The translations under genes were made by a program, and so were the position numbers. The notes beneath the pieces were generated by a model that was not told the DNA's origin, searched no databases, and saw only the letters and a program-made list of their open reading frames with translations. 64,000 nucleotides of DNA. Origin: Fimbriimonadia bacterium. GTDB taxonomy: Bacteria; Armatimonadota; Fimbriimonadia; Fimbriimonadales; JABRVX01. Location of the stretch: assembly GCA_041483895.1 (NCBI GenBank), contig JBGPGO010000012.1, positions 1-64,000 on the forward strand. Direction: 5' to 3'. Shown piece after piece: positions 1 to 50,083 of this stretch; position 1 is the first letter of the stretch, and every line of letters starts with the position of its first letter.

Positions 1-136
1 AAGGGTGACTAATCTACAGAGCAGCCTCCAAAAGGGGCTTAGCCGCGGGACAGACTCTCCCCCCGCCTTGCCTTACTGAGCCAATCCAGACCCATGTATT
101 TTTCTTTACTGGATCTGATACCCCATAAGATACAAG
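1..136 (-). mobile_element. IS110-family (IS621-like) element left end with bridge-RNA non-coding region; recombinase gene lies outside the window
   Basis: Minus strand starts CT-TGTAT at 136, the core plus right-donor motif I recall for IS621. It is followed by a stem-loop (84-114) and a loop with guide CCCGCGGCT (41-49) matching the flank CCTGCGGCT (135-143) at 8/9, plus CTCTGTAG-ATT (11-21). Confidence 0.8.
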
Positions 137-187
137 CCGCAGGCTCTAGCCTGCGCCGCCCGGACGCAAGCTAAAGCGTGCGGCTAC
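135..187. repeat. GTAG-type REP doublet (family A); first copy interrupted by the IS110
   Basis: (gt)AGCCGCAGGCTCTAGCCTGCG at 135-155 and inverted CGCAAGCTAAAGCGTGCGGCTAC at 165-187, which is the exact reverse complement of 6812-6834. Confidence 0.85.
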
Positions 188-239
188 CAACAGTGGCGGA
201 ACGTTGCCTTGTGAAAGGAACGTAGGATACGATGCAATC

Positions 240-908
240 ATGATCCCGCTGATTTTCGCAACCATGCTCTCAACAACGCCGATCGAGATCGCCTTGGATG
301 GCCGGTTGGACGCAACCACAGCACGCGAGGGCGTAACGATTGAGCTAAAGCGGGAGGACGATGGGCCGCAAAGGCTGACCATTCGAGGCAAATTCGAACA
401 GCCCTTAGTAATCCATCTCTATCCCCGCCTGGTGCCCAGCAAAGTCATGTTCAAGGCCCATGCCGTAAGGCGCGTGATTGGCGATTGGATCGACGCGCCG
501 GATCCGCTTTGGAGGACGGACGGCGATGTGCTGCACCTCGATATTCGGGTCCCCGCCGGCCTCAGCGGCAGCGCGCCGACCTTTGCGCTCATCGGACGAA
601 GCAACGCCGACGATGTCGCGCGCGCCGCGGGCCTGATTCGGTTTGTGGCACGAGTGCGCGATTGGATGAATGGGGTAGGGGATCGGCGGCTTTCAACCGA
701 AGCGGCTAGAGATTTGGGCTCGCTCGCCATGCGGCATGCGGTCAAGATCGACGGAGAAGAGGCGAGCAGCGCCGTCTTCCAGGACCTAGCTGTCGATATA
801 CGGCGGTTTTGCGGCGCAGATGCCATGAAGGGCAGCTCTCCATCTACCCGCATCCGGATCGCGATGGAGCTTCTCGGAGCGATTGGGCATGTGCCGTTAC
901 CGCGCTGA
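240..908 (+). CDS. hypothetical protein, probably exported
   Basis: ORF 204-908. ATG at 240 lies 6 nt after TACGAT and gives a hydrophobic N-terminus. Confidence 0.6.
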   Translation: MIPLIFATMLSTTPIEIALDGRLDATTAREGVTIELKREDDGPQRLTIRGKFEQPLVIHLYPRLVPSKVMFKAHAVRRVIGDWIDAPDPLWRTDGDVLHLDIRVPAGLSGSAPTFALIGRSNADDVARAAGLIRFVARVRDWMNGVGDRRLSTEAARDLGSLAMRHAVKIDGEEASSAVFQDLAVDIRRFCGADAMKGSSPSTRIRIAMELLGAIGHVPLPR

Positions 909-985
909 ATCGAATCGTTGAAAAAGTGGTATACCAGTCAAAAGTGAGCCTATGATGGCTCGATCCAAGAAAACGGAGGATCGCA

Positions 986-1633
986 ATGAAATCTTCACAT
1001 ATTTTGCGTGGCCATCTCATCGCACTGGCATTCGTCGGATTGATGCTGGCCCCCGGTCAGACCTTCGCCCAAGCAAAGAAGCCGTTCACCGCGGGGGGAG
1101 TTTGGGTTGAGGGCTGCAGCTGTGCCCCGCCTTGCGCTTGCGAGATGATCGGCCCGAATATGGAGTGCCAAGGCGTCGGGTTTATGGACTTCAAGAGCGG
1201 CAAGTACATGGGGACCAGTCTGGCCGGAGCGAAAATGGCCTACGGCGTCGGCGTGGGCAAATGGGTACGAATCTACATCGACGCCAAGAGCCCGAAGCAA
1301 TATAATGCCGTAAAGGCCCTCTCCACGTCAGTTTTCAAGGGCTTTGGGCCGCTGGAAGGCGTTCGCAAGGCCAAGATTAGCGTAACCGGCTCCAAAGGGA
1401 AATACACTTGCACAGCCGACGGCGGCTCCCTGATGGCGCTGACGACCAAGCCTGTTATCGGAGGAGACAAGAAGACTCCGCTGGTCTATAGCAACATCAA
1501 TAATCCCCTGCACTCCACGGTGATGCAAGGGAAGGTCGTCGGATGCAGCTTCAAGGATGGGGAGCATGAGTTCGACCTTAAGGATACGAACGCATTCTTC
1601 AACCCAGCCGCGAAGGGCAACGGCAAGATCTAA
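986..1633 (+). CDS. DUF1326-family exported protein
   Basis: GGAGG RBS, signal peptide, CSCxxxCxC motif followed by CQG. Confidence 0.75.
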   Translation: MKSSHILRGHLIALAFVGLMLAPGQTFAQAKKPFTAGGVWVEGCSCAPPCACEMIGPNMECQGVGFMDFKSGKYMGTSLAGAKMAYGVGVGKWVRIYIDAKSPKQYNAVKALSTSVFKGFGPLEGVRKAKISVTGSKGKYTCTADGGSLMALTTKPVIGGDKKTPLVYSNINNPLHSTVMQGKVVGCSFKDGEHEFDLKDTNAFFNPAAKGNGKI

Positions 1634-1651
1634 TCGACTCGCAAATATTAC

Positions 1652-1681
1652 GATGCGCCTTCGGTTTTCCGAAGGCGCATC
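1652..1681. terminator. hairpin terminator between convergent genes
   Basis: GATGCGCCTTCGG-TTTT-CCGAAGGCGCATC, perfect 13-bp stem. Confidence 0.75.
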
Positions 1682-1701
1682 ATTTTGTATTCTTATCGAA
1701 A

Positions 1702-2367
1702 CTAGCGGCGGACTTTGCGTCGCAAGAGCCCACCGAATCCAACCAAAAAGGCCGCGACAATACCCGGCTCGGGAACCGGATTAACCAGATCTTGGCTCGG
1801 TTGGTTGCCCGGATCCGAAGGATTGAGCTGATAGTAGTTTGCGACGCTAGAGCCGACGTCGGTGAATAGTGTGCTGGCGTACGACAAATCGGCTGCCGAC
1901 AACGCTGTAGTGTCCAGGTTCAACGCTTGGAAGCTTCCTGCAGTTAGATCGAGGGACGAACTGGTTTCATACAACAACTCCCACATCACCAACTGAAGAA
2001 TCCGGGCCTGTGCATTTGTGCCGGACGAGTTGATGCCTGGCGCATATTTGTTGGTGAGGTAGCCAATCTCCGGACCACTGGGTGACAACGAATTGGTGCC
2101 AAGAAGGCTGACATCCCAACAGTTTCCCGTCAGGTCCATGTCATCGACTACATTGACACAGTAGGTGTAAAATGATCCGGATACGATATCGCATCGCTCG
2201 ACATTGAGTTCGCCGGCAAACCATTCTGCGTAAGTTCCACCGCTGTTGAGACTCACCTGGGCTTTTATTCCTTTCCCAGTACCAAGGTAGTGCAACTGTG
2301 GCGGGCCGGCGTAGGCTGCTCCGGCAAGGATTCCAAACCCCAACAGAATTCCATATTTTGCTCTCAA
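1702..2367 (-). CDS. PEP-CTERM surface protein, possible Cys-Gln thioester domain
   Basis: C-terminal VPEP, TM segment and RRKVRR; signal peptide from TTG 2367; YCV and QLVMW motifs. Confidence 0.85.
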   Translation of the reverse strand: MRAKYGILLGFGILAGAAYAGPPQLHYLGTGKGIKAQVSLNSGGTYAEWFAGELNVERCDIVSGSFYTYCVNVVDDMDLTGNCWDVSLLGTNSLSPSGPEIGYLTNKYAPGINSSGTNAQARILQLVMWELLYETSSSLDLTAGSFQALNLDTTALSAADLSYASTLFTDVGSSVANYYQLNPSDPGNQPSQDLVNPVPEPGIVAAFLVGFGGLLRRKVRR

Positions 2368-2583
2368 TTTATGACCCCAAAATAAGTGTCCACTCAGGGA
2401 GTCAAAGCAACGCAACACACAGGATCGTCTATCTCAGGTGAAAAGCAAGTCAAGGAAGCGGCCGGGCAGAGGCTGCAGCAATGCGATGCGGCACACGAGC
2501 ATTATATACCTGGAAGCGGCAACCGGCCACTTTCTCCCGGCAATTCTTACGATTAACCCGTATTTATGCGTGGCGTCGATTCG

Positions 2584-3201
2584 TCAGAGGTCGCGAACGA
2601 ACATGAGCCGAATGGGAACGCCGATCACAAGATGGTCGCCGAGCGGTATGTCCGGAAAGTGTTGGTTGAGGCTTCGCAGGACTGGGCCGACGGGAGTATC
2701 GTGCCAGATTTTTACCATCGACGCCCCATCGATCTCGACCACTACCGGATGTTCGTTCAGAATTCGATCGGTCTTTTTGACCGCGACCAATGCGCCGTGC
2801 GGATAGTCCGGCTCCATCGATTTTCCCTGAATTTTCAGAAAGAAGTCGGCGTCGCGGGAGAATGCCGCCGGCACGGTCGTTACGACAGGCTCGCGGTCCG
2901 GCTCACCGGCGCCCGCCAGGATTCCGCCGAGCACGGTGATTTCTTGGAAATCTTCTTGCGGAGCGGCAAGATCGGCGAGTTGGTCGTAGCCCGCGAATCG
3001 CAACCATTGAACCGGCGACTCTTTGAGCGCCGCAGCGATGCGCACGATGACCTCCGGTGACGGAATCTGCCCTAGCATCCAGCTCGACACGTAGGAATGA
3101 TTCACTTTGGCCAGCATTGCCAGCTTGCGCTGGGACAGGCCGTACTGGGCCATCGCGCGACTAATCTCTTGGCGAAAAGTGAGAGTTGGATCGTCAACCA
3201 T
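2584..3201 (-). CDS. XRE-HTH / S24 peptidase repressor (LexA/CI-like)
   Basis: N-terminal HTH (LSQRKLA...VNHSYVS), Ala-Gly site (ILAG), catalytic GKSM and VK. Confidence 0.88.
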   Translation of the reverse strand: MVDDPTLTFRQEISRAMAQYGLSQRKLAMLAKVNHSYVSSWMLGQIPSPEVIVRIAAALKESPVQWLRFAGYDQLADLAAPQEDFQEITVLGGILAGAGEPDREPVVTTVPAAFSRDADFFLKIQGKSMEPDYPHGALVAVKKTDRILNEHPVVVEIDGASMVKIWHDTPVGPVLRSLNQHFPDIPLGDHLVIGVPIRLMFVRDL

Positions 3202-3204
3202 CGA

Positions 3205-3243
3205 ATGTAACAATATCCGCAAGCGGTGCGGATATTGTTACAT
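3205..3243. promoter_or_regulatory. perfect 17-bp inverted repeat abutting the repressor start (operator or terminator)
   Basis: ATGTAACAATATCCGCA-agcgg-TGCGGATATTGTTACAT. Confidence 0.6.
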
Positions 3244-3260
3244 GAATTTGGGTTTTGGGG

Positions 3261-4694
3261 TTAGTCTAGTCCGCGAACCGTTGCGGCGGCCTTGATCAGG
3301 TCTTCTTTCGCGACACCGGCGGATCCGATGGCGTACCAGATGAGGCCCGACTTCCAGACCAGCACGTCGCCGGCGGTGTCGGAATGGTAGTACGAAAACT
3401 TCCGGCCGTTGCCATCGATGGTCTCCGGATCGCCGAACGTCGCTTTTGGGGCCAGGGCGTTGGTCGGATCGGATGTATTCGACTGGTAGAACACCATGGA
3501 GCTGCCCGATTTGGGATCGATGAACTCGCTGATCAGAGCGCCGGATGCGCCTGTTCGCGCTTGGCCCGCCATTCCCAATATCCGCCCGATCACGTCGTCA
3601 TTCAGCCATTGACCGCTTTGTAGCTGTTTGATCTGGTTTATGGTCAGCGGGTGAGGAGTAAGCTTGATCCCATCGGGGCCCTGAAATTCAAGGTGCTGAC
3701 CGTCGTCGGTATCGAATGCTATTTTGAGCTCAATCGCGCCCGTCCCTTCCGCGACAGGCAGGTCGTCGGTTGTGGCGGTAACGAATACGATATCGTGCTC
3801 ACCGTCGCCGGATTTGGCCGTGAAGACTCTTGCCTGACCGGGAGGAATGGGGCCGCCGGCGCCATTCGACGCGCCTCCGCCCAAGTTTGATCGGAATATG
3901 GTTCGAAAGTCGCTGTTCGCGTGCTGCAGACCCGCCGGGGGATCGATACGGCTGATCCAGGCCCGCTTATCTTTGTCCTTTTCCTCGATTCCCTTCATCG
4001 CGGCCTGATACGCCGTGGCGTCTTCCAGCTTCGTCAGGTTCTCCACCGCTTGGGTCGAGACCGGGCCGTTGATGTGGAGGGTGCCTAGCGGCAGTTCAAA
4101 ATTCGCGGCTAGGGTGGGCGGATTGAAGGCGACTTCCGTGGTAGCGCGTTCGTAGACCACCTTGCCCGCCTCGATCCGTTGGTACTTCAGGACGAGGCCG
4201 GTTTTGGTGTCGATCCACTGCTTCTCTTGATGGACGTCGCTCTTTGGGTTTGTGGTGGTGAGGACGTAGCAGTCCCGGCCGGCCACTTTTTCCTGCCCTT
4301 CCAGCTTCGCGGGCTTCTTGAGCTCCTTTTCCAGAAGCTCTTTGGGGGCGGCGAAAAGGTCTCGCTTGATTCTTGTCGGGTAGGTCGCGGCGACGCGGTC
4401 CACTCCGGACGGATCGAGGATTCGGAGCGCCGCCTTGAGATCCGGGACGTAGAGAAAGGCGTTCTTGGCGGTGGCGATTTCCACGTGCGGCAGTTTGGCC
4501 AGCGCACCAAACACCGGGTAGGCGCCCTCGATCCGGGAACTGCTGCCCTGACGCAAGACCGTGTAGGTCTTTGAATTCGTAAGGGTGCCTGTTTCGTGAA
4601 TGGACATCCGGACAGTGCCGAAGCCGTCCCAATTCGATTGCGCATGCCCGAGGCTCGCGATGAGAGCGCTGACGCAGATGAGGCTGATTTTCAT
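3261..4694 (-). CDS. exported LolA/RseB-like-fold protein
   Basis: Signal peptide; GQEKVAGRDCYVL...WIDTKTGLVLK motif. Confidence 0.65.
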   Translation of the reverse strand: MKISLICVSALIASLGHAQSNWDGFGTVRMSIHETGTLTNSKTYTVLRQGSSSRIEGAYPVFGALAKLPHVEIATAKNAFLYVPDLKAALRILDPSGVDRVAATYPTRIKRDLFAAPKELLEKELKKPAKLEGQEKVAGRDCYVLTTTNPKSDVHQEKQWIDTKTGLVLKYQRIEAGKVVYERATTEVAFNPPTLAANFELPLGTLHINGPVSTQAVENLTKLEDATAYQAAMKGIEEKDKDKRAWISRIDPPAGLQHANSDFRTIFRSNLGGGASNGAGGPIPPGQARVFTAKSGDGEHDIVFVTATTDDLPVAEGTGAIELKIAFDTDDGQHLEFQGPDGIKLTPHPLTINQIKQLQSGQWLNDDVIGRILGMAGQARTGASGALISEFIDPKSGSSMVFYQSNTSDPTNALAPKATFGDPETIDGNGRKFSYYHSDTAGDVLVWKSGLIWYAIGSAGVAKEDLIKAAATVRGLD

Positions 4695-4758
4695 GCCCGT
4701 CCTCCTATTGCCGCCTATGGAGTGAAGTACGTGGCTCATTGTACACTGGGTTCCGGGT

Positions 4759-5799
4759 TTACGGTTCGTCTGTGCCTGCGGAACGGAGCAGCGTTTCGGC
4801 CTCCGGTTCCTGCGAGGGCGTCCGTAGCAACGTGTCGCGGTCCTGATCGCCTTTTATTGCGGCTCTCAGCAGGCGCGCGTTTTCATTGGCCGTCGAGCAT
4901 CTTCGTTCGATCTCTACAATGCAGGGCCTCACGGCAGCTCTTACCTCGGATGGTGGCTCATAGTGCTTCCAAATGAGGCTCTGCCTGCCGACCAGGGCGC
5001 GGAGGATTGGGATAGCCGGTTGATAGTCCGTCATGGCTAGAATTCTGATGGCGGTACGGATTGCCCGCCAACTTGGCATAGGCCCCCAATCGGCCGGGCG
5101 CAAGAGGTTCGCGATAGCAGTCCTGTCTTGGCCAGTAAGCTGATCGCACTCTTCGGCACTGATACTGTCGCCGATCTCGAAGAACTTTTTTTCGGCTTCC
5201 GATCGCGGTTCGAATTCTAAGGCGTAGCGGGCGAGGAGTCCCAATGATTCGGGTCCGCACTGCGAGAACAGTAGGTTTGTTGCCATTTGCCGCCGTCGCC
5301 GCGGTACTATGTAAGTAATGTTCGCTACGATCAGAAACGGGACGACAATCACTATGAACCAAAAAGGGGTGAAGTTCACCATCCATTCTGGGAAAGTCGG
5401 CAGTGTTGTCAGCGCTTTAATTCCGGCGCACAACAGAAGGCCTAAGAGAATGAGCATCAAAAACAGGATTCTCGGCCTCTGATTTTCGCGAACGATGTCC
5501 ATGAGTACAGTCTTCCACTCCGGTTTTGCCGTTTTGCCAAGGTCGGCCGCAACCTCAACCTGCTCACCGGCATCCAGTTTGGCAAATCCATCGATGAGCT
5601 GGAGAAATCTGTCACGGTTGGGTTCGTACTGACCTTCGTAATGCACGGCGTTGCAGTTGACGCAGATCCATCGATCCCGCTCCCATTCCGGCGACCAGGC
5701 CATCCTTTGGCCGCACTTCGGGCACGTTCTGTGGAGGGACTTGGCATGACCGGGGACAACCACAGTTGGAACGCCAGGAAACAGGAATCGACGCTTCAT
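4759..5799 (-). CDS. Zn-ribbon, two-TM, HEAT-like membrane protein (paralog 2)
   Basis: CxxC...CxxC, two TM helices, repeated LLR tail. Confidence 0.7.
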   Translation of the reverse strand: MKRRFLFPGVPTVVVPGHAKSLHRTCPKCGQRMAWSPEWERDRWICVNCNAVHYEGQYEPNRDRFLQLIDGFAKLDAGEQVEVAADLGKTAKPEWKTVLMDIVRENQRPRILFLMLILLGLLLCAGIKALTTLPTFPEWMVNFTPFWFIVIVVPFLIVANITYIVPRRRRQMATNLLFSQCGPESLGLLARYALEFEPRSEAEKKFFEIGDSISAEECDQLTGQDRTAIANLLRPADWGPMPSWRAIRTAIRILAMTDYQPAIPILRALVGRQSLIWKHYEPPSEVRAAVRPCIVEIERRCSTANENARLLRAAIKGDQDRDTLLRTPSQEPEAETLLRSAGTDEP

Positions 5800-6782
5800 G
5801 GCTGGTCTTCACGGACGAATGGTTCCACTTGGTTTGTGGCTACCGCTCGCAAGAGATTCTGCTCATCGGAATCTTCCGTTGCCACGCGAAGGAGCGAATC
5901 GTGGTCCTGCTCGCCTTCCGTTGCTGCGCGGAGGAGGCGGGAGTTCTCGTCGGTGATCGTTCTTCGCCGAGTGATTTCCGCAATCGCGTGCTTCGCCGCC
6001 TCCCGGATGGAATCCGGCGACCGAGAGCGCTTCCATAGCGGATTCCAACTGCCGATGAGCAACCGAAGCGCGGGAATGGCCTCGGCATAATCTGTTTGCG
6101 AGAGCAGACGCATGGCTTCGGCCACCGCAGACCAATTCGGCCTGCCTCCCCAGTTTTCGGAAGGGAGCAAGCTGGCGATTGCCTTCCGATCTTCGCGGGG
6201 AAGGTTCGAGATTTCCTGCGGCGTCAGTCTTTTGGCAACCTGGATGAATCGGTCCGGTGCGTCGTCGCGCGTCCCGTATTTCACGATGAAGCGGGCGACC
6301 ATTCCAAGGGAAGTTGTGCTCGGATTGGCCAGGAGGAGACTTCTACCGAGTTTCGCTTTGCGACCCGCCTCGGCAGTGATTCGGTCGACGAGTATGGGAC
6401 CGATCATCAGCGGGAGGAACCAGAAAATGACTTTCCACCATCCGTCCGCCAGCTGCAAGCCAAATATGAAGAACACGGCGAATATCGATATCAGGAATCC
6501 GTATCCGACAAGCCCTTGCTCCACTCGATGCCAAGCGGCAGCCTGTAGGGCCGCGATCTGCCATGGTTCTGTGCCGGCATTGCTCAATCTGGCGACGATT
6601 GCGGCCTGGTCCACACTCGGGAGGCTCCGGATGCCGTGGATCAACCGTTCAGCACGCTCTTTCGACGGTGGAAACGCGGCGCTCTCAATGATGTGGCCGC
6701 ATTGTTGGCACGTCCATCGATCGCGATCCCATTCCGGGTACCAGGTCAACCCGGCGCCGCACTGTTCGCAAGTCCGGTGCAT
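5796..6782 (-). CDS. Zn-ribbon, two-TM, HEAT-like membrane protein (paralog 1)
   Basis: Same architecture as 4759-5799, with ATGA overlap; start could be 6782 or 6791. Confidence 0.7.
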   Translation of the reverse strand: MHRTCEQCGAGLTWYPEWDRDRWTCQQCGHIIESAAFPPSKERAERLIHGIRSLPSVDQAAIVARLSNAGTEPWQIAALQAAAWHRVEQGLVGYGFLISIFAVFFIFGLQLADGWWKVIFWFLPLMIGPILVDRITAEAGRKAKLGRSLLLANPSTTSLGMVARFIVKYGTRDDAPDRFIQVAKRLTPQEISNLPREDRKAIASLLPSENWGGRPNWSAVAEAMRLLSQTDYAEAIPALRLLIGSWNPLWKRSRSPDSIREAAKHAIAEITRRRTITDENSRLLRAATEGEQDHDSLLRVATEDSDEQNLLRAVATNQVEPFVREDQP

Positions 6783-6811
6783 AGGTTTCATTATCTCACG
6801 ATTTTCCTCTG

Positions 6812-6992
6812 GTAGCCGCACGCTTTAGCTTGCGCCCGTCGGCACAGGGTCTGCGATCACCGCGGGCCTTGGGAAATGCAAGGAGTGACCGTTTGCTACA
6901 CGGACCCGCGGCCACAGGCCGGACAAGGCGGCGCAAGCTGAAGCTTGCGGCTATCGGAGCGAGCATTTGCGCAAGCTGAAGCTTGCGGCTAC
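6812..6992. repeat. BIME-like cluster of GTAG REPs (family A)
   Basis: Copies at 6812-6834 (+), 6932-6954 and 6970-6992 (-); GACCCGCGGCCAC family-B-like remnant near 6903. Confidence 0.85.
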
Positions 6993-7033
6993 CGGGGGAT
7001 AGCAATATCGGGAATCGGCTACACTTTCCGGCA

Positions 7034-8683
7034 GTGCAAGAGAAAACGACAGTTTCGTTCTGGAAATCGCCCAGGGGCTATGCGCTTGCATGGGCCCTGT
7101 TTACGTTCGTTTTCCTGCTGCTTACCAGCCACTACAACCAGTTGCTCCGCTACGAGCACTATTGGTATCTGCTAAAGGCCTTTGAGATCACGAATGGGAA
7201 CTTCGAGGCCATGCCGTCGCACTCCATCGGCTGGCCGGCGATTCTGGCCGTGTTCTTCAAGCTGTTCGGGATCGGCAATGTGTTCGCCGGCATGGTGGTC
7301 GCCCGCATCGTCGGCAGCCTCTTTCTGGCTCTGTGCGTTCTGCCCTTTGCCAAGCTCGCCTTTCGAGTCCTGGAGGAGCCCGCGGCCAAATTGGCAGTCA
7401 TCGGTTTTGCGCTCTTTGGGCCGTTGCTGCAGCTGGGCTCTTCTGAGGCAGGTACGGAAGCTCCGTTCTTTTTCGCCCAACTGCTGTTCCTCGTCTTACT
7501 TACCGCCCCCGCCAACCCCTCGACAGGGGCTGAGCGGAGCGAATCTTCCGCGCCGCTGGGACTCCGTGCGTTTGCGCGTCCTATCTGGGCCGCCGGGATT
7601 GCCGCGTTGGCCTGGTATGTCCGCCCGAATGGATTGATACTCGGCGCCTTCCTATTAATCGCGCTACTTTGGCGGCGATCCGGGTGGAAGCCGCTTGCGC
7701 TCTGCGCGGCAACGTTCCTGGTTGTTAGCGGACCCCTTATCTACTCCCGGCAGAAGGCGTTTGGGTCGTTCATGGAATACGGTGTCAACTCCAAGTTCCT
7801 GGCGGACAACCACGGAATGGCGCAGGCGTACAACGTTCCGGTTCCGGGAATCGTGGAATATCTGAAAACGCATTCGCCGAAAGATTGGGTACGAAAATTC
7901 GGAAAGGAAGGGGAGTATCGGGCGCTGAAATACGTGCGCCGGGACCTGCTTGGCGACATTTGGCTCATTCCGGTCTTTCTTGGATTGGTTCTCTATGTTT
8001 TTTTCGAGCGCAAACCGTATTTCGGCATGATGCTGGGATTGGCGGGATTGTGGCTGGCCAGTTTCGCACTGACGTTTTCGATCTTCGAATCCGCGCGATA
8101 CGTTCTGGTGCTGGCGTCTATGGTCGTCATCTTCGGCACGGACCTGATTCACCAGTTCGCAAAACGATATGAAAAGGCCCACATTTTGCGGCTGGCTTTC
8201 GTTGTCCTTCTTCTGCCGCAACCTGTTTTGGAGTTGGTGCGCGCCGCGAAGGATCGGGAACGATTCGCAATGCCCTATGTGAAAGACGAGTGGGCGCATT
8301 GGGCGACTGAACAGGGGGGAATGATCGCCCTTGACCACGATTTTGAGCTGATCCACATGTGCTATTCGCCGTCGGTTTTGGACCTTGCGCATGGAGTCTC
8401 CCAGGTTAACGCTCGCGACCCGGACCATCAGTTGAAGCTGGTCGAGAAGCAGGGAATCGGGCTTTTCAAGCCGGGACTGTATGGCTCGGTCGAGGAGCTG
8501 CTTGCGGATTTGAAGAAGTGGCGCGTGAAGTACCTGCTGCTGGATGATGATTACGTTGCGACGCATCCGTTTTGGCAGCAGATTAAAGATGGCAAGAACT
8601 TCTGGAAGGTCAAGGAGTTCGGCGCCGGGGATGATTGGGCCGTGCCGGGCATGGTGGCTTATGCCGTTGTTTACGGCAAGTAG
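7034..8683 (+). CDS. GT-C fold (ArnT/PMT-like) membrane glycosyltransferase
   Basis: Many TM helices; GWP, TE-P, RPNG and RY motifs; GTG start 8 nt after TACACT. Confidence 0.7.
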   Translation: MQEKTTVSFWKSPRGYALAWALFTFVFLLLTSHYNQLLRYEHYWYLLKAFEITNGNFEAMPSHSIGWPAILAVFFKLFGIGNVFAGMVVARIVGSLFLALCVLPFAKLAFRVLEEPAAKLAVIGFALFGPLLQLGSSEAGTEAPFFFAQLLFLVLLTAPANPSTGAERSESSAPLGLRAFARPIWAAGIAALAWYVRPNGLILGAFLLIALLWRRSGWKPLALCAATFLVVSGPLIYSRQKAFGSFMEYGVNSKFLADNHGMAQAYNVPVPGIVEYLKTHSPKDWVRKFGKEGEYRALKYVRRDLLGDIWLIPVFLGLVLYVFFERKPYFGMMLGLAGLWLASFALTFSIFESARYVLVLASMVVIFGTDLIHQFAKRYEKAHILRLAFVVLLLPQPVLELVRAAKDRERFAMPYVKDEWAHWATEQGGMIALDHDFELIHMCYSPSVLDLAHGVSQVNARDPDHQLKLVEKQGIGLFKPGLYGSVEELLADLKKWRVKYLLLDDDYVATHPFWQQIKDGKNFWKVKEFGAGDDWAVPGMVAYAVVYGK

Positions 8684-15560: not shown

Positions 15561-15896
15561 TGGAAGGGCTCCTTTTCCTCTCCCGTTTCGGGAGGATTGT
15601 TTGTCCCGATAGGACTACCAGGATTGTAACACGGGTTTTTCCAATTGCCAAGAGCAAACGGCCAGTAATCGGGACCAATTGAAATTGCATAGACCTTGCC
15701 CTCGACCAAGTTGCTCCTCCCGCGCCTGCTGATCGGCGCCAGTCAAAGGGTTCGCCACCAGCGCCGTCATGCGTCAATCCGACTCCGTACGAGTGGCCTA
15801 GGAAACAATTCTGTGATAAACTGATTCAATTCGGCCCCTCTCTGTTCTGCGAGGGGTGATCGCTTTGCGTACTTGATTTTCGAAGGAGAGTGTTCA

Positions 15897-18800
15897 GTGG
15901 TTGCAATCCCTAAGTGCCCGTTTGGTTTCTCCCGCGCCTATGCGCTGTTTGCCGTCGTCGCCATGTTGGCGCTTGCACCGGTAGGCGTTGGACAGCCTTT
16001 TACCGGGCGGGGAAATAAAGTACCCAGCCAACTCAACGTGCCAGTTGGCCTGTCCAGTGCAAATGCGATTGCCGTGATGGCATGGAGCTCTCGCGACCTA
16101 GTCACGCTCGATGACCCTCCGACCGCGAACATTACTTCTCCAACGGAAGGGCAGTGCTTTCTTGAGGGCGCCGATGTAACGGTTTCTTATTCGGTGGCGG
16201 ACGACTCTCCGGGCGATCTGTCTTCCTGCCAGGTATTTCTGGATGGAGGCCTCGTGGACACTCAGAGCCCATGTCCGCAAGGAGACCATTCGTTCGGACC
16301 ATTTTCACCTGCAAACGGCCATCATACTGTCCAGATTTTCGTTACCGATGCCGCAGGGAACAACGGATCGTCGGCTGTCGTTCACTTCACTCTCGACTCG
16401 ACGAAACCCACCGCCACCATTAATTCCCCGAAGAACAGCGACTGCCTACCGGACTCCGGCGTGACCATTGACTACAAGGTCGCAGACAATCTCACGGGCG
16501 ATTTGGCGAAGTGCGAGGTCCTGATCGACACGGTCGTCGTGGACACGATGGCCCCTTGCCCGCAAGGGAATCATACTTCCGGACCCCACACGCTTACGGA
16601 CGGTACTCATAAAGTGCAGATACGGGTGACCGATGCCTGTGGCAACGTGGGTACCTCTGCTCTCATCGTCTTCACGGTGGACACCACTGCGCCAACGGCC
16701 TCGATCAACTCGCCCAAGGAAGGCGACTGTGTCTTCGTTTCCGAGGACGATGACGATGATCTTATCATTTTCTACACGGTTGCGGACAACCTGCCGGGCA
16801 GTCTGAAGAAGTGCGAGATATTGATCGATGGGTTCGTCGTCTTTGTAGACTCATCGTGCCCGCAGGGGCTTCACGACAATGGCGGCTTTTTCCCCTTGGA
16901 CGGGCCGCACACCGTCCAGATACGCGTCACGGACAATTGTGACAATGTCGGTATGTCAGCTCTTGTTAACTTTACTGTGGACTCCACACCGCCAACGGTC
17001 TTCATCACAGCCCCCAGGCAGAACGACTGTGTCGGCGGTCCCGTAACGATTAAGTTCAACGTCACAGACACTCCGCTGACCGATCTCAAGAACTGCGAAA
17101 TTCGGATCGATGGTGTCGTAAAGGACACGTTTGCCCCTTGCGCGCAAGGGGATCACACGGCTGGTCCATATACACTACCCGACGGTCCTCACAACGTGAG
17201 GGTGACGGCGATGGACAACTGCGACAACATCGGGTTCTCCGATACCATCCAATTCACCGTGGACGCGACCGCCCCGACCGCCACGATCACTTCGCCCAAG
17301 GAGGGCGACTGTTCGAAGAATTCAAGCCTGAGCGTTTCTTACACGGTCGATGACAACATCCACGACGACCTGAATAGGTGTGAGGTCCTTGTTGATGGGG
17401 TCGTGAAGACGACTCAGTCTCCGTGTTCCCGGGGGTTTCACACATCAGGCCCGTACACTCTGGCAGACGGGCTCCACACCTTCCAGATTCGGGTGAGGGA
17501 TGACTGCGGCAACGTTGGGACCTCGACCATCATTAACTTCAAGGTCGATACGGCAAAACCGACCGTCTCGATCACTTCCCCCACCGAGGGCGCGTGCATG
17601 GACGGTACCAACGCGATGATCTCCTACGCCGCTGCGGACAACCTGCCCGGCGACCTCCAGAAGTGCGAAATAACGATCGACGGAACGTTGAAGGAGACAA
17701 AATCGCCTTGCCCTCAGGGCGATGAGATCGCCGGTCCGTTCAGCTTGACAGATGGCCCTCATACGGTCCAAATCCGTGTTACGGATGACTGCGGCAACGT
17801 GGGCCAATCGGTGCTCGTTCACTTCACTGTGGATAACAGCCCGCCCACATGTTCGATACAGTTCCCGAAGAATGGCGATACGATCGCCGGCCCGGTGACG
17901 GTCAAATTTACGATCGGCGACAACGTGCCTGGAAATATTTCTTGGAGCATACTGGCCGATGGCGGAGTCGTTGAACATAATGAAGACTCGCCGCAGGGCC
18001 CGCAAACAAGCACCCCGATATTCCTGCCCCTCGGCCCGCATCAGATTTCGGTCGTGGTTCACGACGCGTGCGGAAACGAGACCACCTGCGGACCGCTGAC
18101 CGTGACAATCTCCGACGGAGGATGCGTGGGGACGCTGCTCCCGAATCTGATCGTTGGGCCTTCAGCAGCCAAGGATCCGTTCAGCGGCGGTCCGGTGAGA
18201 GTGTTCCGGCCCGCGACGCTGAATATCGACACCCTGACACTGCGCGACGTTTTGATCGGAAATAACGTGACAATCGATCAGAACCTGATCGTGCAAGACG
18301 TGCGCGTTTCGAAGTTGACTTCGGCTCTCAAGTGCACGGTATTCGGGTCTGGACCTGGGTCCGGTTACAACACAAACTTTAATAGCGGCTTAGTGGCGGC
18401 CTCCAGCGCGAGTCTCGACGTATCCGTTTGCCTCATCGCCCTGCATCGTGCGATTGATGAGCGATGCCTTGGCGATCGCTGCCTGTTGTTCTCGCCGCCT
18501 TGCACGACGTATACGCTGAGCGTTGTGTACGTCGTGCGGGACCCGAAGACGGGCCGGACCGGTTCGCCGATCACTTCGTCCTTGTCATGGGTGATCAAGA
18601 ATCCGACGCGGCAGGATATTCGGGACAATATCGAGTACTTCGGCACGGTTGCCGCGGGATTCACCCAGAAGTGCAAGATCGACGATAGCGTGATGGAGGC
18701 GTTGAACGCTGCGCTGGACAACCCGAACGACCTCGAGGCATTGTTGGAGTTTGAGACGGTCATCGCGTTCGCGGCAACGGACTTCCAGACACTGCGGGAC

Positions 18801-18920
18801 GCGAAAGACGCCAAGGGTAACTTCGACGCCCGCCTGCTCCACGATTACCTCATCGATTCCGATGAGGAGCCGATTGGGTGTTTGCTGATCGAAATGGCCA
18901 ACTTCGCTTTGTGGAACTAA
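15897..18920 (+). CDS. large secreted protein with seven Cys-containing bacterial Ig-like repeats
   Basis: About 95-aa repeats TVDxxxPT..SP..G..H.VQI.VTD.CGN; AAGGAG RBS before GTG 15897. Confidence 0.85.
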   Translation: MVAIPKCPFGFSRAYALFAVVAMLALAPVGVGQPFTGRGNKVPSQLNVPVGLSSANAIAVMAWSSRDLVTLDDPPTANITSPTEGQCFLEGADVTVSYSVADDSPGDLSSCQVFLDGGLVDTQSPCPQGDHSFGPFSPANGHHTVQIFVTDAAGNNGSSAVVHFTLDSTKPTATINSPKNSDCLPDSGVTIDYKVADNLTGDLAKCEVLIDTVVVDTMAPCPQGNHTSGPHTLTDGTHKVQIRVTDACGNVGTSALIVFTVDTTAPTASINSPKEGDCVFVSEDDDDDLIIFYTVADNLPGSLKKCEILIDGFVVFVDSSCPQGLHDNGGFFPLDGPHTVQIRVTDNCDNVGMSALVNFTVDSTPPTVFITAPRQNDCVGGPVTIKFNVTDTPLTDLKNCEIRIDGVVKDTFAPCAQGDHTAGPYTLPDGPHNVRVTAMDNCDNIGFSDTIQFTVDATAPTATITSPKEGDCSKNSSLSVSYTVDDNIHDDLNRCEVLVDGVVKTTQSPCSRGFHTSGPYTLADGLHTFQIRVRDDCGNVGTSTIINFKVDTAKPTVSITSPTEGACMDGTNAMISYAAADNLPGDLQKCEITIDGTLKETKSPCPQGDEIAGPFSLTDGPHTVQIRVTDDCGNVGQSVLVHFTVDNSPPTCSIQFPKNGDTIAGPVTVKFTIGDNVPGNISWSILADGGVVEHNEDSPQGPQTSTPIFLPLGPHQISVVVHDACGNETTCGPLTVTISDGGCVGTLLPNLIVGPSAAKDPFSGGPVRVFRPATLNIDTLTLRDVLIGNNVTIDQNLIVQDVRVSKLTSALKCTVFGSGPGSGYNTNFNSGLVAASSASLDVSVCLIALHRAIDERCLGDRCLLFSPPCTTYTLSVVYVVRDPKTGRTGSPITSSLSWVIKNPTRQDIRDNIEYFGTVAAGFTQKCKIDDSVMEALNAALDNPNDLEALLEFETVIAFAATDFQTLRDAKDAKGNFDARLLHDYLIDSDEEPIGCLLIEMANFALWN

Positions 18921-28940: not shown

Positions 28941-28984
28941 TAGAACATCCCCTTTGCGCCTACCGTTCGATCCTACCTTGGCGG

Positions 28985-31303
28985 CTACAGCTTTGTCTTT
29001 GCCAATCGCAAAGCGTTGGTGATGACGGAAACGGAGCTGAAGCTCATGGCCAACGCGGCGAAAACAGGACTGAGGAGAAGGCCGAACACGGGATAGAGGA
29101 CACCGGCGGCGATGGGCACTCCTAAAGCATTGTAAATGAACGCAAAGAACAGGTTTTGACGGATGTTGCGCATCACGAGGCCGCTGAGCCGCCGTGCCCG
29201 GACGATTCCACGAAGGTCGCCTTTTACGAGCGTAATCCCCGCACTCTCGATTGCGATATCCGTGCCCGTGCCCATCGCGATCCCGACATTGGCCTGCGAT
29301 AGAGCCGGAGCGTCGTTGATTCCGTCCCCCGCCATCGCGACAATTCGGCCTTCCTGTTGGAAACGCTTGACAATTTCGGTCTTTCGGTTCGGCAACACCT
29401 CGGCCTCCACTTCCGAAATGCCGAGCTGGGACGCCACCGCCTCCGCCGTCGTTCGGCTATCGCCCGTGAGCATGACGATTCGCAGTCCCGCCGCTCGGAG
29501 ATCTTCCAGCGCTTTGGGCGTCGTCTCCTTGATTGGGTCGGCGATGCCAATAAGACCCGCGATTGCTCCGCCGCTAACGACGAACACGACCGTCTGGGCC
29601 TCCTTTCGCAGCATCTCCGCTTGGGTCCCAAATTCCTGTGCGTCAATCCCCATCTGACGGAGCAGCTCCCGGTTCCCGATGGCGACGTCCGTCGCGTTTT
29701 GGATCGCTTGCACCCCTTTGCCGGTGATCGACTGGAATTCCGACGTTGGCAACGGGGCGATCGAGCGCTCCTTCGCGGCGGCGAGAATGGCGGCGGACAA
29801 TGGATGCTCGCTGCCCTGCTCCATGCCTGTGGCGACCGAAAGCAGCTCTTGTTCGGAAACACCTGACGCCAGCCGAATCGTGACCACCTTGGGCTTCCCT
29901 TCGGTGAGCGTTCCCGTCTTGTCCATCACGAGCGTATCGACCTTCTCGAACGTTTCCAGCGCCTCCGCGTTCTTGATCAGGACTCCCTCATGGGCTCCCC
30001 GCCCCGTGCCGACCATGATCGACATCGGAGTCGCGAGCCCAAGGGCGCAAGGGCAAGCGATGATCAGGACCGCGACGGCGTTGATCACAGCGTATGCCAT
30101 TGAGGGCGCGGGCCCAAAAACCGCCCACACAACGAAGGTGACGACGGCCGCGAGGATCACGGTGGGAACGAAATAGGCGGAGACTTGGTCGGCGAGTCGT
30201 TGGATGGGCGCGCGACTGCGCTGGGCCTCGCTTACCATCTTGACAATCTGCGCCAGCAGTGTGTCGGTCCCGACTCGTTCGGCACGCATAATCAACGAGC
30301 CCGTGCCGTTGACCGTTGCCCCAATTACCCGATCGCCGACTGCCTTTCCAACCGGCATCGCCTCGCCGGTCACCATCGATTCGTCCACGTTGCTTCGGCC
30401 CTCATTCACGATGCCGTCCACGGGGACCTTCTCTCCGGGACGAACCCGGAGCAGGTCTCCGACATGGATGTGCTCGATCGGCACATCTTCTTCCGTGCCG
30501 TCCGGATTGACGCGCCGTGCGGTCTTTGGGGCGAGGCCAAGAAGCATCTTGATGGCCATGCTTGTCCGGCTTCTCGCGCGCAGTTCGAGCACTTGGCCGA
30601 GAAGGACGAGCGTGGTAATGACGGCGGCGGCCTCGAAATACAGATCAACCCCACCAGCCTCGTTTCGGAACGAACCTGGGAAAATCTCGGGCGCCAGTAC
30701 ACCAACGATGCTGTAAAGCCATGCGACACCGGTTCCGATTGCAATCAGAGTGAACATGTTGGCGCTGCGATGAACGAGGGAGGCCCAAGCACGCTGAAAG
30801 AACGGCCATCCTCCCCAAAGAACAACCGGGGTGCCCAGCGCCAATTCCGCCCAACCCAAGACTTTGGGACTAAGGTGCATCGTGGTTTCCATGCCGAACA
30901 CGTGCGGCATAATTGCGGCGAGCAATGGCAGCGTCAAGGCGGTGCTAATCCAAAACCGACGGGTCATTTGCGTCAGTTCCGGATCCGGCTGGTCGTCGAG
31001 GCTAACGGTTTCTGGTTCAAGCGCCATTCCGCAAATGGGACACGATCCTGGACCGCGTTGCCGAATCTGGGGATGCATTGGGCAAATGTACCAAGCTTCA
31101 GAATCTTCGGGCGCAGCCGCTTTGGACGTCAAGAAGGATTCGGGATTGGCCGAAAAGCGTTCCAGGCAACTCTTGCCGCAAAAATAGTACGTTTGGCCCT
31201 TGTAGTCGAAGGAGCCGGCGCTGCCCGTGGAATCAATGCCCATCCCGCAGACGGGATCAATCACTTGGTTCGCTTCGGAAGAATCTTCGTTCGCTTGGAT
31301 CAT
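28985..31303 (-). CDS. copA: Cu(I)-translocating P1B-type ATPase with YHS domain
   Basis: DPVCGM/YYFC, CPMHP, TGE, CPC, DKTGT, GDGIND, YN and MxxSS motifs. Confidence 0.95.
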
Positions 31304-42229: not shown

Positions 42230-42234
42230 TTCCC

Positions 42235-44822: not shown

Positions 44823-44823
44823 C

Positions 44824-45303: not shown

Positions 45304-45332
45304 TTGAAATAATGCCGGAACCGCGTTATACT
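45304..45332 (+). promoter_or_regulatory. sigma70-type promoter
   Basis: TTGAAA-N17-TATACT. Confidence 0.6.
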
Positions 45333-45371
45333 GTATGTTAGCAAGTTGGGAATTGCAAAGGGAGTAGAGTC

Positions 45372-46478: not shown

Positions 46479-46494
46479 TTCGCCTCGCAGAAGT

Positions 46495-46533
46495 AATTCC
46501 TCCGCACGAACGTGCGGAGGAATTGTCTTTTTT
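46495..46533 (+). terminator. rho-independent terminator
   Basis: AATTCCTCCGCACG/CGTGCGGAGGAATT followed by a T-run. Confidence 0.8.
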
Positions 46534-46560
46534 GCACTCGCCTAGCCCCACCAACCACGC

Positions 46561-46759
46561 TGTCATTCCGAAGGAGCGAAGCGACTGAGGAATCTTTCAG
46601 AACTTCCCGTCATCCGCAAACGATATTGGATGGCAGAGACTCTTGAAAGGGATTCCTCGCTCCGCTTCGGAATGACAACCTTGCCTGCCGAGACCGGGAT
46701 TCCTGGCTTCGCTGCGGAACGACAGCCTTGCTCCTGGCGGAACAAGGACCTGCGGCTAC
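46561..46759. repeat. GTCATTCCG-type REP cluster (family C) plus a family-B REP end
   Basis: TGTCATTCCG...CGGAATGACA at 46561-46677; 46645-46676 identical to 53791-53822; 46741-46759 matches 50065-50083 at 17/19. Confidence 0.82.
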
Positions 46760-48459
46760 GGGTCCGTCGGATTTACGTGCAGCGTCTTTTCATTCGAGTA
46801 GGTAACGGCGCCCGGCGGGGCCGACCGCGGTTTGCGAACGTATTTCTTTAACATGTAGTCCACCGCGACCATCGAAGAGTGTTTCGCCGGACTGTTGCGT
46901 GCCACCAACCGCGCCGCAGCCTGCAACACCGTCGGCGGAACGCGCTCCGGGTGATTGTTCGTCGGTATCACGGCGTGCGCGCTGGTCCCACCCCGTACAT
47001 GCAGCCATAGATCATTGGGCCTCGCCACTTTTTGCGTCAGGTGGTCGTTCGAGGTGGCGTTCTCCCCATATAGGATTAGGAAGCCCTCCGCCGTGCGAAC
47101 CTCCCGGATTCGGAAGCCCTGGTACGGCCGATCCTCTCTGTCGCGCGCGACGGCCTCTTGCCGGTGCAGCCATCCGCGGCGGGTTGCGACGGCTCGCATT
47201 TCAGCCAGGCCGTGCTCATCCATCTGGTCCATTCTTTCGATCATCGATTCCAGGTCGGCAATGTCGCTCAAAAGAATCGCCCGCCGATCGGTCCTCGATT
47301 GCGCCGCGCCCTTTGCTTTCTTCGCCCTTCCAAAATAGGATTCTGCGTTCTCCACAGCGGACAGCTCCGAGTCCAGCGGAATCTCGACGGGCTTCTGTTC
47401 TGGGTCCGAGTAGTCCGGCGCAACGAGGCGCTCCGATTTTGGCGGGAGCGAGTGTCCGTATGCCAGAATCAGATCACCAAATATCTGGTATCGATCCGCA
47501 AGCGCGGACTCCCCCAGCGCCCTGTCCAAATCGTCCACCGCGTGCTGGAACGAGTCCCGTGCCTTGCCGAGAGCGGCCGCCAACTGGGTCCTAATCGCAG
47601 TGGCGCGCGCCCGAGGAATTGCGGCAAGATAGTAGGCATCCAACGCCGCGCTCGTCGAGGCCTGGCGATGGGCAGTGATGGGCTCCGGCGCGGCGACCGG
47701 AAACGGGTAGGCGCCAACTGCCAAACCCTGTTCATCCCGAAACAGCACCGGTTCCCAACGGCCGTTCGCAATCGTGTCCCGCCATTCCATGTATGCGGCG
47801 CGCAGTCCGGGCCGGGACTGACCGGCGCGATCCCAAAGCTGGCCGGCCAAAAACGGGCTCATGCCCACGACATTTTCCACCAACCACTTTGGACCGACCT
47901 CTTCCGCGTCGCGGACCAGCGCCTCGAATTCGTCCACGTCCATCGCCAGCGGATTGAAACCGGAAGGAGCGGGAGGCGGTTGATATTTGAGACCCGGCCT
48001 CACCTGCCTCCGCGACTGCTTGCTGCCAACGATCTTTGCCGCCGCCAGGATCTCCTCGGAAGAATCGAGGAGCATGATGTTCGAATGCTTGCCCATCAGC
48101 TCCACCAAATAAGTAAACACCCGGCCGCCGTCGCCCCGAACGGCAATCTCCAAGACCCGATCGAACCCCAGTTGGATGATGGATTCGATAAAGCCATTCT
48201 CCGTCCAACGGCGGGCGGTCATACAGAAGGTTGGTGGCTCCGGAGGGTTCGCGGGCCGCACAGAAGTCAAATGGGCGCGGGGAAATTCCGGATCGCACGA
48301 GAGAATCAGATGGTGGTTGACCCCGCGGCCATGCACCTGCAAGATCAGCGTGCGCTCCTCCGGCTGGGTGATCTTCTGCAGCCTTCCACCAATGAGCGCC
48401 TGGCAATCGGAGGTGACGGCTGCCAACGTTGTGCTGTCAAATGGGACCTTGTAGGCCAT
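46756..48459 (-). CDS. rqcH: Rqc2/RqcH (NFACT/FbpA) ribosome quality-control factor
   Basis: FD, DR, ELMGKHSN, G.N...ND and WLH motifs. Confidence 0.9.
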   Translation of the reverse strand: MAYKVPFDSTTLAAVTSDCQALIGGRLQKITQPEERTLILQVHGRGVNHHLILSCDPEFPRAHLTSVRPANPPEPPTFCMTARRWTENGFIESIIQLGFDRVLEIAVRGDGGRVFTYLVELMGKHSNIMLLDSSEEILAAAKIVGSKQSRRQVRPGLKYQPPPAPSGFNPLAMDVDEFEALVRDAEEVGPKWLVENVVGMSPFLAGQLWDRAGQSRPGLRAAYMEWRDTIANGRWEPVLFRDEQGLAVGAYPFPVAAPEPITAHRQASTSAALDAYYLAAIPRARATAIRTQLAAALGKARDSFQHAVDDLDRALGESALADRYQIFGDLILAYGHSLPPKSERLVAPDYSDPEQKPVEIPLDSELSAVENAESYFGRAKKAKGAAQSRTDRRAILLSDIADLESMIERMDQMDEHGLAEMRAVATRRGWLHRQEAVARDREDRPYQGFRIREVRTAEGFLILYGENATSNDHLTQKVARPNDLWLHVRGGTSAHAVIPTNNHPERVPPTVLQAAARLVARNSPAKHSSMVAVDYMLKKYVRKPRSAPPGAVTYSNEKTLHVNPTDP

Positions 48460-48502
48460 ACGGCTGCGATTATACGATCCCATGGTACTATTAGGAACGT
48501 CA

Positions 48503-49906
48503 ATGGCCTCGGTACGCGTACTTCGCGAGAGGCGGAGCGCCCACGCCGAGAGCGTCCCGCTAATCTTGTCCCCGAAACCCCTGTCGCATATTGTGTGGGG
48601 GCTTGCTTGGCCTGCCGTCACGGTCAACCTGATTCAGACCGTCAACATGTTCGTGGACCGGAGCTTTGTCAGCTCGCTCGGCACCGGCGCGCTGGCGGGT
48701 CATGGGACGGCAACCTCGGTTCTGTTCCTGATGTTTGGGGTTGCGATGGCCCTCGCCCAGGCGGCCACCGCCTTCGTATCCCGGTTCCACGGCGCACAGG
48801 ATGAGGAGCAGACGCAACGGTCCCTTTCCGAATGCCTATCTCTCGCGATGGTGCTGGCGGTGGTTTCCCTCGTATTGGGGTTCCTGCTCATGCATCCGCT
48901 TGTCAATTCCCTACTGGATGCGAAGAGCGCGGGGGCCAGGCTGGCGGCGATCTCTTTTCTTGGGGTGGCGCTGCTCGGGATCCCTGCCACTTACCTTAGC
49001 AATGTGATGGCGGGCGCGCTGCGCGGGGTCGGCGATACGAAGACGCCTATGTACGTGATGACGATCATGGTGTTCATCCACATGTCGGTGTCCTGGATCT
49101 TTATTTTTGGCCACTTTGGCGCGCCGAGGCTGGGGATCGCCGGCGCGGGAGTCGGGCTTGCGGCGTCCCAATGGTCCAGCGTGCTGATGTACGTGCCGCT
49201 GATGGCGCATAGGAATCTGGGACGCATGCGATTTCTGCGCCTGCCGACCAAGGAGTGGGTGCTTCGCATCCTTCGCATCGCCACTCCAACGATGATCCAG
49301 ACGATGTCGCGCAGCATCGGCTTTCTGATCTATATCGCCTTTTTGGACCGCACCCTTGAGGGCGCGAATGCTGTGGCCGCGTTGAACATCGGGACCGTGG
49401 CGGAGAGCATCGCGTTTATGCCGGCGTTCGGATACGCGATGGCGGCGAGCGCGCTGATCGGCCAGTCGCTGGGCGCCGGAGTGCCGGAGCGTGGCGAGCG
49501 GGCCACCTGGATCGCGGCATGGCAGGCGTGCCTCATCCTGACCGTTATGGGCGCGGCCATGTTCTTTTTCGCGCACGTATTCACGTCGATGTTTCCGGTG
49601 CAGGACAAGGCCGTTACGGGCCTTGTCGTTCGGTATCTGCAGATCGCCGCAGTGTGCGAACCCGCTTTCGCATATTCGATGGTGATGACGATGGCGCTCA
49701 ACGGGGCTGGGGACGTGATCCGGTCGGCCTGGATCGTGATCGCCTCGATGTGGTTTGTGCGTTTGCCGCTGGCGTTCGTCTGGGGTCTGCATTATGGCGG
49801 CGGCGCATCGGCTGTCTTTTGGTCAATGACGATCGCTGTGTTCACCGGGGCGATTCAGTCCGTCTGGGTGTTCCGTAGCGGTAAGTGGAAAACGGCGCGG
49901 GTCTAA
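48503..49906 (+). CDS. MATE efflux transporter
   Basis: D..FVS.LG, RGVGDTKTP, LGIAGAG motifs; many TMs. Confidence 0.92.
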   Translation: MASVRVLRERRSAHAESVPLILSPKPLSHIVWGLAWPAVTVNLIQTVNMFVDRSFVSSLGTGALAGHGTATSVLFLMFGVAMALAQAATAFVSRFHGAQDEEQTQRSLSECLSLAMVLAVVSLVLGFLLMHPLVNSLLDAKSAGARLAAISFLGVALLGIPATYLSNVMAGALRGVGDTKTPMYVMTIMVFIHMSVSWIFIFGHFGAPRLGIAGAGVGLAASQWSSVLMYVPLMAHRNLGRMRFLRLPTKEWVLRILRIATPTMIQTMSRSIGFLIYIAFLDRTLEGANAVAALNIGTVAESIAFMPAFGYAMAASALIGQSLGAGVPERGERATWIAAWQACLILTVMGAAMFFFAHVFTSMFPVQDKAVTGLVVRYLQIAAVCEPAFAYSMVMTMALNGAGDVIRSAWIVIASMWFVRLPLAFVWGLHYGGGASAVFWSMTIAVFTGAIQSVWVFRSGKWKTARV

Positions 49907-49919
49907 TCATGCGTTTTCG

Positions 49920-50083
49920 GTAGCCGCAGTTTCTCATTGCAATATCCCCGGCACTGCAGCCCCAAAACCTGCGTGACCACGGTGGACGTTTATGTACGGT
50001 TGGTTTCAAGCAATTCCGAACCTCCCACGCGGGTCTTGTGGTCGTCAATCCGCCACCGATTCAGAACGAGGACCCGCGGCTAC
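49920..50083. repeat. REPIN-like element GTAG...CTAC (family B)
   Basis: Termini GTAGCCGC/GCGGCTAC; shares TGACCACG.TGGACGTT and CTCCCACGCGGGTCTTG with 57614-57882. Confidence 0.75.

Follow-up and report, generated by a model that had tools for sequence, protein, structure and literature searches.

The locus

The window analyzed here is a stretch of 64,000 nt that forms the beginning of contig C12 in a 3.95 Mb, 43-contig genome assembly (G000) from the Fimbriimonadales. For one housekeeping protein, the best named relatives are from the Fimbriimonadales/Fimbriimonadia at 67% identity, with the other 78 of the 80 matches listed at 54–58%, and the host is accordingly placed in the Armatimonadota. 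The first 134 nt of the window, read on the minus strand, are the portion of an insertion sequence that lies inside it, and they align in register with the left ends of intact homologues (Table 1). No transposase gene is present among the open reading frames of the window. Elsewhere in the assembly, six contig ends carry the C-terminus of a transposase followed by a short right end, which extends approximately 16 nt beyond the stop codon and finishes in CT. With four left and six right ends seen, the element is present in at least six copies, two of which have no visible left flank, so that 2/6 sites are unplaced; the body of this multi-copy element was collapsed and dropped by the assembler. 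Apart from the copy at the start of C22, all right ends are identical to each other, which points to recent spread. The C22 copy (L007) differs by one base, which replaces Gln with His, and is assembled over a longer distance.

Searches meant to recover the interior of the element were negative: the left-end sequence had no match outside G000 in 60 relatives and no exact match among metagenome contigs, and a 78-aa fragment of the right end gave no tblastn-confirmed locus in metagenome or genome contigs. On contigs from four runs aligned to 1–7200, neither interior sequence nor an empty allele was found among the 22 of 39 loose ends listed, one loose end repeating the flank seen at C14; read depth over the same interval is higher in the first bin, a value that is not a copy number. 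A single Rfam match to positions 1–400 was judged to be chance. The donor-binding loop, which would lie beyond the contig start, was not recovered in relatives, metagenome or genome contigs. Further into the window, six in-frame repeats of ~285–300 nt each occupy 16179–17683 within a 1015-aa open reading frame (15873–18920), and probably encode repeated protein domains.

Two families of REP ends

The element adjoins two REP families of unlike construction. In family A, 23 nt form a hairpin around a loop of 2 nt; the genome has 62–64 copies, and a search of 20 relatives yielded none. The family-B unit is ~55 nt long, and its terminal bases are complementary to an arm lying ~35 nt upstream. A narrow profile detects 83 family-B copies and a broad profile 172; the target bases were kept out of either profile, and of 9,384 background sites they match 0 (narrow) and 2 (broad). 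Only ~9 terminal bases are common to the two families. Inverted copies of family B flank two RAYT genes (C20:36303, whose protein passes NF047646, and C3:72185), which marks it as a true REP family; the 8 Y1-like genes that were inspected all lack flanking family-A copies. Six more Y1/RAYT-like genes (C5:229772, C6:19541, C6:123302, C12:73445, C21:32397, and C27:26518) each have inverted repeats of other types at their flanks, and at least five further repeat families in the genome come with tyrosine transposases of their own. Predicted genes cover 0–4% of the five REP clusters of the window that were tested.

A preliminary description of this DNA had listed six vacant target 11-mers, and all six are indeed present at the coordinates it gave. 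Five of them are REP ends. The sixth, at 46749–46759, is doubtful as such: only its last dozen bases resemble family B, and it is classed as neither A nor B by either profile. A seventh match to GCGGCTAC, at 28978–28988, had been omitted; it has three mismatches to the guide and is not classed as a REP. The near matches described at 57779 and 57882 exist, together with two more that had escaped notice, and all of them have their mismatch beside the core, in a subfamily that shows no insertion. The seven copies of GCGGCTAC in the window compare with 1.30 ± 1.04 in 100 shuffles, none of which reaches seven. Genome-wide, 304 copies stand against 281 expected under the highest-order Markov model, a comparison that is uninformative since the repeats themselves inflate the expectation.

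Table 1. Element, guide, and repeat features of the 64,000-nt window
Feature	Position	Strand	Basis or remark
Left end of IS621-type IS110 element	1..134	-	identical at contig ends C12, C14, C15, C25
Right target guide, 4-nt core GTAG (reads CT-AC)	14..17	-	right flanks 6/6 AC
Possible extended right guide, reads CT-ACAG	14..19	-	2/6 right flanks start ACAG
Left target guide CCCGCGGCT	41..49	-	same position as flank-matching guides of homologues
Predicted 5' stem-loop, bridge RNA	87..117	-	fold of 1-134; whole-fold z-score only -1.48, weak alone
CT core dinucleotide, left junction	135..136	-	sequence; six right ends also finish in CT
Family-A REP split by element; left target CCTGCGG (minus strand), 1 mismatch	135..155	+	sequence, junction
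Family-A REP, inverted partner of 135..155 in one doublet; vacant site 177-187, 2 mismatches	165..187	+	
Intact family-A REP; vacant site 6812-6822, 2 mismatches	6812..6834	-	
Family-A REP ending CTAT, not CTAC; right target unmatched	6932..6954	+	
Family-A REP; vacant site 6982-6992, 2 mismatches	6970..6992	+	
Vacant target of second IS110	46646..46656	-	
Vacant 1-mismatch site; degenerate family-B end at most	46749..46759	+	unscored by narrow and broad profiles
Family-B REP end; vacant, 2 mismatches	49920..49930	-	
Family-B REP end; vacant perfect match, 11/11	50073..50083	+	
Vacant target of second IS110	53751..53761	+	
Vacant target of second IS110	53792..53802	-	
Family-B subfamily end, mismatch adjoining core	57614..57624	-	absent from preliminary description
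Family-B subfamily end, mismatch adjoining core	57769..57779	+	
Family-B subfamily end, mismatch adjoining core	57872..57882	+	
Family-B subfamily end, mismatch adjoining core	61794..61804	-	absent from preliminary description

Junctions and pairing of the ends

Insertion takes place at a fixed base with a CT core at 4/4 left and 6/6 right junctions, and AC directly follows the right end in all six cases, extending to ACAG in two. At the left junction of the window, positions 135–155 equal a family-A REP minus its first GT, as the intact copy at 6812–6834 attests, in agreement with the split at GT^AG that had been described. Since the AG at 135–136 on the plus strand is the CT core found at both ends of the element, GT^AG and GTAG^ are equivalent. 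The four visible left junctions all map to the CT core in the end of a GTAG REP, two in family A (C12 and C25) and two in family B (C14 and C15), which bears out the proposal that one guide serves both families; with two of the at least six copies unplaced, the visible copies do not lie mostly outside REPs. The occupied left targets read CCTGCGG (C12) and CGTGCGG (C25) in family A, and ACCGCGG (C14) and CCCGCGG (C15) in family B. Their mismatches to the guide number 1, 1, 0, and 2 in the order C12, C14, C15, and C25, every one at positions 1–3 and none a G:T wobble. At all four, the left target has a complementary arm upstream of it, across loops of 2, 34, 35, and 2 nt.

The left end, the transposase gene and the right end are probably parts of one element, a conclusion for which gene order offers support at one copy. 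In two genomes of the same family (G001 and G002), the two genes beside the C4 right end directly precede, in the same direction, the gene beside the C25 left end; when joined, the C25 and C4 flanks would reconstitute the commonest intact family-A REP (27/64 copies). The query for a partner of C12 was not found in five genomes, and no partner emerged for the C14, C15, C21, C22, C31, and C33 starts in a search that excepted the gene flanking the right end on C14. Gene order thus joins one of the four left ends, and no contig holds left end, transposase, and right end together.

The recombinase and its IS110 membership

Among longer proteins, P0002 (325 aa) was the only match of 108 candidates for the 78-aa right-end fragment, to which it is 99% identical, and it is through this fragment, not directly, that the protein is tied to the element in the window. 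P0002 combines an N-terminal DEDD domain (PF01548) with a C-terminal serine domain (PF02371) and scores 176.9 bits against NF033542, for which the cut-off is 140. Its residues 6–319 align to the IS621 transposase (E 2.3e-40), and it also aligns to the ISCro4 recombinase across nearly its whole length. The conserved motif residues D13, E60, D102, D105, and S242 are aligned with the same letters in IS621. The layout of the element is that of the IS110 (IS621) group, consisting of a left end of at least 134 nt that carries the guides and a short right end. The element does not fit the IS1111 group, in which the guide RNA lies in a long right end; here the guides are in the left end and the right end is short.

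Guides in the predicted bridge RNA

In IS621, the left guide of the bridge RNA base-pairs to the target's bottom strand and the right guide to its top strand, each guide including the core (Durrant et al., 2024; PMC11208160). The corresponding guides of the present element together spell the target CCCGCGG-CT-AC. The vacant site at 50073–50083, which had been described as a perfect match to the left guide, agrees at 11/11 positions once the right guide at 14–17 is included. The target loop, when folded without constraint, adopts a fold different from the model (−22.4 vs. −15.4 kcal/mol constrained). A TTGACA motif is located 14 nt ahead of the right core, and 2 nt past the left core a −10-like TATCTT begins; across the joined right and left ends these would give a candidate promoter with a spacing of 18 nt, by pattern only.

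Homologues at 30–38% identity provide comparative support for this assignment. Both junctions are visible in 16 of 26 loci, the other 10 having been left out for want of a printed alignment (4), a left junction (4), or a right end (2). At all 16, which represent only 10 genomes and 11 different guides, the left guide fits its own flank with 0–1 mismatch and the right guide also fits; the left half of this check is partly built in, since the left junction was chosen by the best guide match. The guides of the window fall in the same alignment columns as those of the homologues.

The guide against the REP ends of the genome

REP ends make up only 236 of the 14,609 CTAC sites in the genome, so that four of four junctions in REP ends is far from chance. 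When compared with these 236 ends, the guide matches 8 exactly (rank 9), 146 with at most one mismatch, and 219 with at most two; among all 16,384 heptamers it ranks first at both of the relaxed thresholds. It is thus the consensus of the REP ends of this genome and not the commonest end. Because the families had been seeded near the guide, the ranking was repeated with repeats defined solely by the 14 bases that precede the target, and among the resulting 252 sites the guide again ranked first, covering 116 within one mismatch and 187 within two.

Vacant GCGG-CT-AC sites with up to two mismatches total 241, namely, 125 REP ends, 103 sites in predicted genes, and 13 intergenic sites, the intragenic/intergenic split relying on a crude gene model. 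A further 94 REP ends, including those at 57779 and 57882, have a mismatch within the four core-proximal bases and hold no insertion (P ~0.11, with four events). This lack is consistent with the strictness of the core-adjacent position described for ISPpu10 in a preprint (10.64898/2026.03.19.712850). Another preprint reports half-match insertions (10.64898/2026.08.31.748434), so the two unplaced copies need not be in repeats.

Proposed mechanism and alternative explanations

The junctions, the match between guide and target, the REP context, and the catalytic motifs, intact in the matching protein P0002, are direct observations. The reading that we favor, with a probability of about 0.88, is that an IS621-type IS110 element has multiplied recently in this member of the Fimbriimonadales, reaching at least six copies, directed by its guide into the GTAG ends of both REP families. 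By analogy with IS621, excision would yield a circle in which the joined ends of the element form a promoter, and the bridge RNA would be transcribed from the left end. Its target loop would then pair with CCCGCGG-CT-AC, and the DEDD/serine recombinase would insert the element at the CT core. The guide would represent the consensus of the GTAG ends common to the two differently built families, and mismatches would be tolerated at the three core-distal positions, a tolerance that would bring both families within reach.

It is very improbable that the REP context is an artefact of contigs breaking at repeats, with left and right ends that come from different elements. All junctions do lie at contig ends, where four left ends face six right ends; however, all four left junctions fall at one and the same base, the flanks differ past the REP end, and gene order pairs C25 with C4. 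Moreover, the right end of the other IS110 of this genome is followed by TT, as the guide of the other left end predicts. Another alternative is that the recombinase also reads the REP hairpin through its upstream arm and prefers REP ends over equal guide matches. The complementary arm at every occupied site speaks for such dual recognition, as do the occupation of a 2-mismatch REP (C25) while five perfect non-REP matches stand empty, and a stem-loop effect measured for ISPpu10 (bioRxiv 10.64898/2026.03.19.712850). Under guide pairing alone, with no selection, the chance of four REP junctions in four is ~0.07 (125/241). Yet 103 of the 116 non-REP sites are intragenic by the crude gene model, and if insertions there are purged the probability rises to ~0.67; in addition, the size of the hairpin loop is very different between the two families. 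As guide pairing together with the loss of intragenic insertions explains all four junctions, an extra preference for the hairpin does not follow from them, and we regard it as unlikely. The safe-harbor role proposed in the preliminary description holds as an outcome, and the four junctions do not demonstrate that REPs are actively chosen over and above guide pairing.

The guide could instead be set on one type of site, either the perfect family-B end or the REP of a former host, with family A being a tolerated off-target and the consensus rank a product of descent. Perfect matches do exist (8/236 REP ends), three sites match the extended 13 nt, the extended right guide fits 2/6 right flanks, and a column consensus is a centroid by definition. 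Against this, the match is perfect at only one of the four occupied sites, and family A holds two of them, in line with its share of 52/125. We consider such a history a serious contender at somewhat less than even odds; it would alter the history of the element and not the mechanism. The wider idea that the guide is tuned to the GTAG consensus of its host, and so serves two unlike REP families, is put forward only tentatively. With it goes a partition of the repeat families among the three most spread insertion sequences, in which this IS110 would use A and B, a second IS110 the GTCATTCC-type repeats, and a third element a G/C-run hairpin; we hold this combined view to be improbable on balance. 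Under the favored reading of guide-directed insertion, two unlike families under one consensus guide is the single feature worth following up.

Other elements and homologues

The second IS110 has its own guide, GGAATCC-CT-TT, aimed at GTCATTCC-type hairpin repeats. It occurs at contig ends as left ends (C3, C7, and C34) and right ends (both ends of C13 and the end of C4), with the left end in its repeat family at 5/5 places and TT after the right end at 3/3. Among repeat ends of its kind, GGAATCC is the most frequent (39/219), and it heads the ranking at 0 and 1 mismatch. The two IS110s are identical in the seven bases preceding the right core and differ by one in the four after the left core; such near-identity beside the cores makes cross-talk between donors possible. 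A scar of the second IS110 (L234; C16:14674–14711, minus strand) consists of 24 nt of the left end between two CT cores in the target repeat, with both flanks of the target on one contig, and looks as if excision had used an internal CT. The only assembled IS110 (L008; C15:85979–87060) was considered as a complete copy of the present element and rejected on the grounds of a different left end and 28% protein identity. Its left end is 97% like that of the second element, its 285-aa transposase is without ~40 residues of the DEDD domain, and its right end and C-terminus resemble neither element's; it is possibly a chimera.

The third element, with TGT...ACA ends, lies with 12/12 ends in the center of a G/C-run hairpin repeat of ~51 copies and is seen at the ends of contigs C1, C2, C5, C8, C9, C18, C24, C26, C27, C28, and C32. 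From its ends and N-terminus we take it to be an IS481 element; its 27-aa fragment matched no NCBIfam family. Among the homologues of the present element, 5/5 copies in one genome (G183) are inserted in a repeat that occurs 141 times, and a copy in another (G158) is inserted in one that occurs 20 times. Five homologous IS110 copies in four genomes (L109, L112, L113, L114, and L122) have targets ending AAG/CAG-CT-CA, and their flanks, as we presume, resemble integron attC sites. Targeting of attC has been described for the IS1111 group (PMC11187229).

Implications

These observations extend REP homing by bridge recombinases to the Armatimonadota, where it recurs (G183), and leave the known mechanism unchanged. 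A natural mismatch-tolerant guide facing ~125 scored REP sites in one genome may help to learn the mismatch rules and the role of the target hairpin, both of which bear on off-target insertion by bridge-RNA editors. If the consensus-tuned guide were true, natural targets with 2-nt vs. 34–35-nt loops would test whether hairpin reading by IS110 elements depends on loop size.

Comparison with known systems

The closest parallel is IS621 of E. coli, with which the present element has in common a bridge RNA in the left end, a 9-nt left and a 4-nt right guide, a CT core, an 11-bp target ending CT-AC, and insertion in REPs, where 144/173 IS621 sites lie (Durrant et al., 2024; PMC11208160). The IS621 guide likewise is not the commonest REP end, since it codes ATCGGGCCTAC whereas 129 sites read ATCAGGCCTAC (PMC11208160). 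The two elements differ in guide and host phylum. Furthermore, the occupied targets described here contain 0–2 non-wobble mismatches at positions 1–3 and belong to two families, whereas the three E. coli REP queries of the IS621 paper are close variants of one kind (PMC11208160).

Other IS110 relatives offer partial parallels. In Pseudomonas putida, ISPpu9 and ISPpu10 insert at a fixed REP base (Tobes & Pareja, 2006; PMC1525189). According to the ISPpu10 preprint (bioRxiv 10.64898/2026.03.19.712850), the left target is likewise the 3′ arm of a hairpin, guide mismatches are tolerated at distal but not at core-adjacent positions, and the upstream arm raised insertion; in contrast to the loops of 2 nt (A) or 34–35 nt (B) found here, it deals with one conserved target with a loop of ~4 nt. 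ISPa11, of the IS1111 group, also combines a DEDD recombinase with an RNA-guided REP target (Siddiquee et al., 2024; PMC11187229), but its guide RNA resides in the right end, whereas the present element has its guides in the left end and a short right end. The repeats themselves resemble the GTAG REPs and RAYTs of Di Nocera et al. (2013; PMC3733652) in their GTAG hairpins, opposite-orientation dimers, and repeat-flanked RAYT genes; the main text of that paper contains no mention of "armatimon," and "armatimonad" was absent from the papers listed in a search of the literature, which is no proof that the subject is missing from the published record.

That IS110 elements target REPs is already known from IS621, ISPpu9, ISPpu10, and ISPa11, and the likeness to the IS621 strategy that had been proposed for this locus is in keeping with that literature. 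Set against the main texts of these papers, what is new here is the Armatimonadota host and the reach of one guide across two differently built REP families.
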